Assembly (NCBI RefSeq): GCF_050920415.1
Contig: NZ_CP169309.1
Strand: one strand, 5' to 3'
Source of the DNA: Escherichia coli
Lineage (GTDB): Bacteria > Pseudomonadota > Gammaproteobacteria > Enterobacterales > Enterobacteriaceae
DNA: 64,000 nt
Shown: piece after piece, positions 55,547 through 55,658 of the stretch
Numbering within the stretch: the stretch's first letter is position 1
Layout of the letters: each line of letters begins with the position of its first letter
Notes under the pieces: generated by a model
Databases searched by the model: none
What the model saw: only the letters and a program-made list of their open reading frames with translations
Told to the model about the DNA's origin: nothing
Program-made: the position numbers and the translations under genes

Positions 55547-55658
55547 TTATTGACTCTCCATTTCACTTCTCATTTCTGCCATTCCATTGCCGTTGATGAA
55601 GAGTTTATCTGTTAATCTGTAAATTGATGTGAAAACTCTTAGCAAACAGGATAATGCA

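Follow-up and report, generated by a model that had tools for sequence, protein, structure and literature searches.

Positions 55547-55658 of an Escherichia coli chromosome segment: a probable PhoP-activated pmrD promoter with a direct repeat of 8-bp period in its core

The 64,000-nucleotide stretch of DNA analysed here (the window) is part of an Escherichia coli chromosome 99.99% identical to that of strain MFDS1022581, with 99.987% identity over the first 46 kb and two differences in 17,601 aligned bases in the right part. It carries menE, pmrD, the arnBCADTEF operon and ais in the reverse complement of the K-12 arrangement. Gene identities and coordinates are those of the RefSeq annotation of MFDS1022581 transferred to window coordinates, together with the list of open reading frames, and they confirm the gene set (pmrD, arnBCADTEF and ais) that a first-pass annotation had read from the sequence. 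Positions 55547-55658 are exactly the 112-bp menE-pmrD intergenic region. A 601-bp segment around it has matches in 5419 of 5426 complete E. coli genomes, where it is annotated as menE, pmrD and arnF, and identity to K-12 over all 10.8 kb from men to arn is 95.7%. An Rfam scan of 54000-64000 (E <= 1) returned nothing, so no known RNA element lies in these intergenic regions. The features of the locus are:

54191-55546, plus strand: menE (o-succinylbenzoate-CoA ligase), from the open reading frame list and the MFDS1022581 annotation; its TAA stop (55544-55546) bounds the intergenic region
55590-55608, plus strand: predicted PhoP box of the pmrD promoter, CCGTTGAT-GAA-GAGTTTAT, from matrix score, published site and conservation
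55620-55625, plus strand: predicted −10 hexamer TAAATT, 12 nt past the end of the second half-site (55607), a spacing as in Salmonella pmrD
55632, plus strand: predicted transcription start, placed from the −10 position, with a leader of about 27 nt
55648-55666, plus strand: Shine-Dalgarno sequence AGGA (55648-55651) and an array of ATG codons at 55654, 55659 and 55664, read from the sequence
55659-55925, plus strand: pmrD, 88 amino acids, from the MFDS1022581 annotation, Pfam PF11183 and PDB 2JSO/4HN7 (E = 4e-54)
55919-63269, minus strand: arnBCADTEF operon, from the MFDS1022581 annotation and the open reading frame list
55919-56305, minus strand: arnF
56305-56640, minus strand: arnE
56637-58289, minus strand: arnT
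58289-59179, minus strand: arnD
59176-61158, minus strand: arnA
61158-62126, minus strand: arnC
62130-63269, minus strand: arnB
63352-63357, minus strand: predicted arnB −10 hexamer TAGAAT (TAAAAT in K-12), placed 10 nt downstream of the PmrA box
63384-63368, minus strand: predicted PmrA (BasR) box of the arnB promoter, CTTAAG-GTTAA-GTTAAT, that is CTTAAGGTTAAGTTAAT, from sequence, consensus and K-12 identity
63577-64000, plus strand: ais, starting at a GTG, transcribed divergently from arnB and truncated by the end of the window, from sequence and the MFDS1022581 annotation

The candidate PhoP box comprises the half-sites CGTTGA (55591-55596) and AGTTTA (55602-55607), separated by the spacer TGAAG to give an 11-bp period. 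We scored it with a position weight matrix (PWM) built from the PhoP sites in Fig. S2 of Harari et al. (2010; PMC2908699), using 8 + 8 informative columns and omitting the central three. The matrix was prepared from 52 sites, from 51 without the E. coli pmrD site and from 50 without either pmrD site, and was run over all of the approximately 128,000 positions on both strands of the window. Positions 55590-55608 scored 14.5 bits with the 52-site matrix and 13.4-13.6 bits with the pmrD sites excluded, ranking second to fourth in the window (fourth at 13.4 bits, with both pmrD sites left out). The training sites have a 25th percentile of 13.4 bits and a median of 15.9 bits, and these scores are within their range; the next best site within the intergenic region reached 4.3-4.9 bits. 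A plain search with the strict consensus KGTTTA-N5-KGTTTA, to which the box has three mismatches, was uninformative (169 matches in the window at up to three mismatches versus 122 expected), and the PWM was used instead.

The sequence at 55590-55608 also has a published counterpart. Fig. S2 of Harari et al. (PMC2908699) gives CCGTTGAT followed by GAGTTTAT as the E. coli pmrD PhoP site; the site is listed in the curated set, and the main text and Text S4 are silent on whether it was footprinted. A literature search for E. coli PhoP ChIP or transcription start-site data on pmrD yielded Salmonella work only. We assign 55590-55608 as the PhoP box of the pmrD promoter on the basis of predicted binding and of its equality with the published E. 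coli site. The first-pass annotation had attributed PhoP-type control of pmrD to this intergenic region, and a box is indeed present there; it lies, however, at 55590-55608, adjoining and upstream of the direct repeat that had been flagged.

Conservation was assessed in 18 loci, drawn from a one-genome-per-species collection by way of an alignment of PmrD homologs. They represent Escherichia sp., E. albertii, twelve Citrobacter, Salmonella enterica subspecies arizonae and diarizonae, and Intestinirhabdus. When the 200 bp preceding pmrD were scored with the 50-site matrix, the top hit was on the coding strand and started at −66 to −69 from the ATG in 17 of the 18 loci (6.0-16.1 bits), and at the remaining locus the homologous site at −66 to −69 was the second-best hit. 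A TGTAA-type −10 follows the homologous sites at equal spacing across loci, and its TGTAA core is kept in most of the aligned loci. One natural variant has a weakened box: in Escherichia sp. MOD1-EC7003 (L004:1432-1450) a T-to-C change in the first half-site, giving CCGTCGAT, lowers the score from 13.5 to 6.0 bits.

The window also contains other strong matches to the PhoP matrix. Within menE, GGTTTTGCAGGTGTTTA (55317-55335, plus strand) has a single mismatch to the strict PhoP consensus and scores 13.2-13.5 bits, about equal to the pmrD box; it is located in a coding region, has no suitably spaced −10 and is probably a chance match. The other top matches fall in long AT-rich intergenic regions (44893-44911 in yfbL-elaD, 26054-26073 in alaA-lrhA and 27865-27883 in lrhA-nuoA) and are likely driven by base composition.

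The sequence around the PhoP box resembles a described class of PhoP-activated promoters. Architecture I denotes a single direct PhoP box located 12 nt upstream of the −10 and overlapping the −35 (PMC3335776), and this is the arrangement at 55590-55608 with the predicted −10. A scan of 55400-56000 found no sigma-70 consensus promoter on the plus strand, as expected for an activator-dependent promoter that lacks a −35. The three ATG codons of the array are in three frames, of which the second (55659) opens the PmrD frame; the E. coli pmrD start-site array has been described by Huynh and McPhee (bioRxiv 10.1101/2021.07.26.453917).

The promoter differs little from that of K-12. The K-12 pmrD promoter (CCGTTGAT-AAA-GAGTTTAT) has the same position, half-sites, spacer-to-(−10) block, Shine-Dalgarno sequence and ATG array. 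From 55562 to the pmrD ATG a single base differs, G55598 in the window versus A in K-12, and the window has in addition a TTG insertion (55550-55552) relative to K-12; both variants are uncommon. G55598 lies at the centre of the PhoP box in an uninformative column of the matrix. The 60-nt core that includes it is matched exactly in 3 of the 5426 complete genomes; megablast with this 60-nt query does not separate the PhoP-box haplotypes, both of which gapped alignment places in the 95-99% identity band. The TTG insertion follows just after the menE stop and creates TTGACT (55550-55555), which we rejected as a new −35 element, as no hexamer resembling a −10 follows at 16-18 nt and the promoter scan gave no hit.

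The closest experimentally described relative is the Salmonella pmrD promoter (Zwir et al., 2012; PMC3335776), an architecture I promoter with the footprinted direct PhoP box CTATTGCCGTTTTGTTTAT. This box lies 12 nt upstream of the −10 TAACGT and overlaps the −35, and the transcript has a 27-nt leader (PMC3335776). The S. enterica promoter and the window share the single direct box, the 12-nt spacing and the leader of about 27 nt, and the boxes are positionally homologous. In contrast, the first half-site is TATTGC in Salmonella and CGTTGA in the window.

The direct repeat flagged upstream of pmrD consists of TCTGTTAA (55608-55615) and TCTGTAAA (55616-55623) on the plus strand, with seven of eight bases matching and an 8-bp period; it is present, at a position two bases off the 55606-55622 first given for it. 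The two units are the tail of a three-unit series with the same period (GTTTATCT/GTTAATCT/GTAAATTG). Shuffling of the 112-bp region produced a tandem 8 + 8 repeat with up to one mismatch in 3.4% of cases, and the window has such repeats at 29 positions; the repeat by itself is thus only mildly unusual. Because the second half-site ends at 55607 and the predicted −10 follows at 12 nt, the repeat takes up the 12-nt spacer and runs four bases into the −10 hexamer TAAATT. It is invariant in most aligned E. coli sequences but is not preserved as a repeat outside Escherichia (for example, ctgctaaagtgtaacc in Citrobacter).

The description of the repeat as loosely resembling PhoP half-sites is accurate for its first unit. 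On a pooled half-site matrix, the octamer CTGTTAAT (55609-55616) scores 6.5 bits, within the top 0.24% of octamers and close to true half-sites (6.3 bits), whereas the second unit, which coincides with the −10 hexamer, scores 2.1 bits. The geometry, however, is wrong. PhoP boxes are direct repeats of hexamers with a 5-nt spacer, an 11-bp period and scores in the range of known sites, and 55608-55623 lacks this combination: full-box PWM scores in all registers over the repeat are at most −1.7 bits (best register, −1.7 to −1.9 bits), which about 1000-1100 window positions equal or better. The first-pass annotation had named scores no better than background as grounds for abandoning the repeat as a PhoP site, and background is where it falls. 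The octamer CTGTTAAT lies immediately next to the second PhoP half-site, offset from it by 8 bp, and its Salmonella counterpart CCGTTGAT occupies the equal position. Such an offset is incompatible with seating a PhoP dimer, and the half-site likeness of the repeat would reflect degenerate GTTxA-like octamers spaced in this way.

Three alternatives to a PhoP-activated promoter centred on 55590-55608 were considered. It is extremely improbable that the repeat TCTGTTAA/TCTGTAAA (55608-55623) serves as the site bound by PhoP at pmrD. The half-site-like score of CTGTTAAT and the invariance of the repeat across most aligned E. coli sequences are in keeping with the proposal, but an 8-bp period does not accommodate PhoP hexamers 11 bp apart, and the background-level scores given above speak against it as well. 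Moreover, the second unit sits on the −10, where a bound regulator would block rather than recruit RNA polymerase; Citrobacter and Salmonella are without the repeat and yet keep the upstream box; and the published site is that upstream box. A related proposal pairs CTGTTAAT (55609) with AAATTGAT (55621), 12 bp apart. In this view the two octamers make up an additional PhoP site of low affinity, or bind a different regulator, and by overlapping the −10 they would tune or limit the expression of pmrD. Scored with a 12-bp period, this pair reaches 10.2 bits, a value that a fraction of 1.2e-4 of the window equals or exceeds. Furthermore, among the 54 sites of the published figure two have a first half of 9 nt, suggesting that a 12-bp period may be tolerable, and in Salmonella, too, a half-site-like octamer (CCGTTGAT) adjoins the second half-site. 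The downstream octamer is nonetheless not conserved, reading AAATTAAT in E. albertii, AACGTAAT and AACCTGGT in Citrobacter and AACGTGTT in Salmonella, and the conservation of the spacer and −10 is accounted for by core-promoter function. We found no literature in support of such a site and judge it very unlikely.

The third alternative dispenses with the PhoP box, which would be vestigial, and has pmrD expressed mainly by read-through from the men operon. menE and pmrD are transcribed in the same direction with 112 bp between them, and the terminator scan of 55400-56000 found no intrinsic terminator or terminator-like hairpin between the menE stop and pmrD; some pmrD transcription could therefore be read-through. 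As the main source of expression it is nevertheless highly improbable, since the PhoP box and −10 are kept across four genera, 55590-55608 scores within the range of working PhoP sites, and E. coli pmrD expression is reported to be PhoP-dependent and induced by low Mg2+ (PMC2565834; PMC3140997). We conclude that the menE-pmrD region is very probably the standard PhoP-activated E. coli pmrD promoter, taking sequences, scores, conservation and K-12 identity from computation and binding, start sites and regulation from the literature.

The second regulatory element of the locus is the predicted PmrA box of arnB. The first-pass annotation had placed it at 63368-63384 on the minus strand, and CTTAAGGTTAAGTTAAT is found at exactly these coordinates. 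A PmrA box is described as two XTTAAY hexamers 5 nt apart that overlap the −35 (PMC10570014). The arnB sequence has two hexamers of the XTTAAY/YTTAAK type at 5-nt spacing, with one mismatch to YTTAAK-N5-YTTAAK, and, as in that description (PMC10570014), takes the place of the −35. A good predicted −10 follows after a 10-nt gap. The consensus match alone is weak evidence, because the window has six matches to YTTAAK-N5-YTTAAK at up to one mismatch versus 2.8 expected; the 64 kb contain just two copies of the core TTAA-N7-TTAA, the other at 26057-26073, which is also part of the alaA-lrhA match to the PhoP matrix. The box is identical in K-12, and 5388 of the 5426 complete E. coli genomes have the 66-nt arnB promoter core at 95% identity or more. 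Furthermore, the PmrA motif reported for the EPEC arn promoter has the identical sequence (PMC10729948). Its second half-site starts with G rather than with the Y of YTTAAK-N5-YTTAAK, a 'slight modification' according to the same study (PMC10729948). With this identity to the K-12 sequence and the EPEC motif, 63384-63368 is confirmed as the PmrA box of the arnB promoter at the level of predicted binding. The K. pneumoniae pbgP/arnB PmrA box, CTTAAT-N5-CCTAAG, shares the layout of two hexamers with a TTAA core, 5-nt spacing and −35 position ahead of a good −10 (PMC10570014; PMC3973317). E. coli arnB is reported to be without a PhoP box, unlike Klebsiella (PMC2565834; bioRxiv 10.1101/2020.05.05.080051). 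No separate PmrA box for ais was found at up to one mismatch in 63270-63576, where the only other match at two mismatches is in the arnB leader. The lone PmrA box of this divergent region is about 193 bp upstream of the ais GTG.

Taken with the published PhoPQ-PmrD-PmrAB chain (PMC3140997; bioRxiv 10.1101/2020.05.05.080051; PMC2565834), the two boxes are consistent with the following circuit. Low Mg2+ would activate PhoQ/PhoP, and dimers of phosphorylated PhoP would bind CGTTGA-N5-AGTTTA (55591-55607) at the −35 position and recruit RNA polymerase to the −10 TAAATT (55620-55625) located 12 nt downstream, as in a class II, architecture I promoter. The resulting pmrD transcript would have a leader of about 27 nt with the Shine-Dalgarno sequence AGGA and be translated from the ATG at 55659. 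PmrD would then shield phosphorylated PmrA from PmrB, allowing it to bind CTTAAG-N5-GTTAAT (63384-63368) at the −35 position of arnB and turn on arnBCADTEF, whose products would modify lipid A with aminoarabinose. The overall picture of a polymyxin-resistance circuit drawn by the first-pass annotation therefore holds, with the pmrD PhoP promoter in the intergenic region and the arnB PmrA box where it had been reported. The circuit and both of its sites are already known, indeed textbook, for E. coli and Salmonella, and the locus is ordinary. What the analysis adds in practice is a position for the PhoP box, 55590-55608, and the recognition of the flagged repeat as core-promoter sequence; beyond correct annotation, the locus is of little importance.

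The first-pass annotation had also held that pmrD varies between strains, and the comparisons agree for both the protein and the promoter. PmrD of the window differs from that of K-12, the sequence in PDB 2JSO and 4HN7, in 5 of 88 residues (D14V, A39T, V66I, K82Q and V83S; 94% identity). None of the 28 family-invariant columns is changed, and each of the five substitutions occurs in some other Escherichia, Citrobacter or Salmonella PmrD. Membership in the PmrD family is indicated by PF11183 on its homologs, the match to PDB 2JSO (E = 4e-54) and the retention of the invariant residues. The coding sequence is at least 99% identical in only one of the 5426 complete genomes, and the exact protein is already public on 99 contigs; the window PmrD is thus a rare but catalogued allele. 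Its divergence is regional rather than specific to pmrD, as the whole 10.8-kb men-arn stretch differs from K-12 to the degree given above. In the literature consulted, the difference in connector function between E. coli and Salmonella is put down to interspecies PmrD divergence (PMC3140997) and to the PmrB phosphatase (bioRxiv 10.1101/2020.05.05.080051), not to strain alleles. In K-12 the connector step is weak and condition-dependent, with PmrB acting as a strong phosphatase (bioRxiv 10.1101/2020.05.05.080051).

Variation in the promoter concerns a PmrA site in particular. Salmonella pmrD carries a PmrA repression site about 38 bp from the PhoP box (PMC2681069) that mediates feedback, whereas the window is without a PmrA-box-like element. 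We identified TTAA-N7-TTAA sequences resembling a PmrA box that precede the PhoP box of pmrD by about 35 bp in Citrobacter (zero to one mismatch), Salmonella (two) and E. albertii (two), and such an element stands at a conserved position in 14 other loci. In these species and in a subset of E. coli it lies approximately −114 to −95 from the pmrD ATG. In the window, no PmrA box upstream of pmrD was found at up to two mismatches in 263 bp, nor was one found in the K-12-like loci L005 and L004. The element is likewise absent in K-12, APEC O1 and O157; in the window it is missing from 55547-55589. This is consistent with the reported lack of a PmrA feedback loop on pmrD in E. coli (PMC3140997).

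A second type of E. coli pmrD promoter is present in MRY15-117, strain 103 and AVS0366. It has ACTAAT-gattt-CTTAAT across the menE stop codon, with ACTAATGATTTCTTAAT as a candidate PmrA target sequence, and a more canonical PhoP box, CCGTTGATAATAGGTTTAT (AGGTTTA), that scores 16.0 bits versus 13.5 bits for the K-12 type. Of the 5426 complete genomes, 655 carry this promoter at 99% identity or more, and another 456 carry it at 95-99%. Our literature search, with some key papers outside its reach, found no description of a pmrD promoter polymorphism in E. coli. The K-12 type, to which the window belongs, may have lost the PmrA box, and an ancestral type may keep ACTAAT-N5-CTTAAT together with the stronger PhoP box. 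On the protein side, V14, T39, I66, Q82 and S83 of PmrD could change the reach of the PhoPQ signal to PmrAB, and G55598 and the TTG insertion could add to the effect. These two readings, taken jointly as rare PmrD allele and promoter variants that alter PhoPQ-to-PmrAB signalling and a natural dimorphism of E. coli for PmrA feedback on pmrD, seem to us unlikely. Promoter polymorphism, with or without the PmrA-box remnant and with a PhoP box of 16 or 13.5 bits, may be relevant to how strains differ in the polymyxin tolerance induced by low Mg2+. It is a mildly useful by-product of the analysis, and it concerns other strains rather than the window.

Some minor observations concern the surrounding sequence. 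The convergent genes pmrD and arnF share 7 nt (55919-55925), and the sole terminator-like hairpin in the scan of 55400-56000 (55908-55923) is at the 3' end of pmrD, in the region of this overlap. In E. coli strain 720632 (NZ_CP025842.1), IS1A lies directly 3' of menE and is followed by ais, with pmrD and the whole arnBCADTEF operon absent. Elsewhere in the window, elaD (ElaD/SseL family deubiquitinase; about 45259 onward) is annotated as a frameshifted pseudogene in the near-identical strain. The dedD-cvpA intergenic region (about 2017-2300) matches itself at an offset of about 91 bp with 95.9% identity, which indicates a tandem or repetitive extragenic element.
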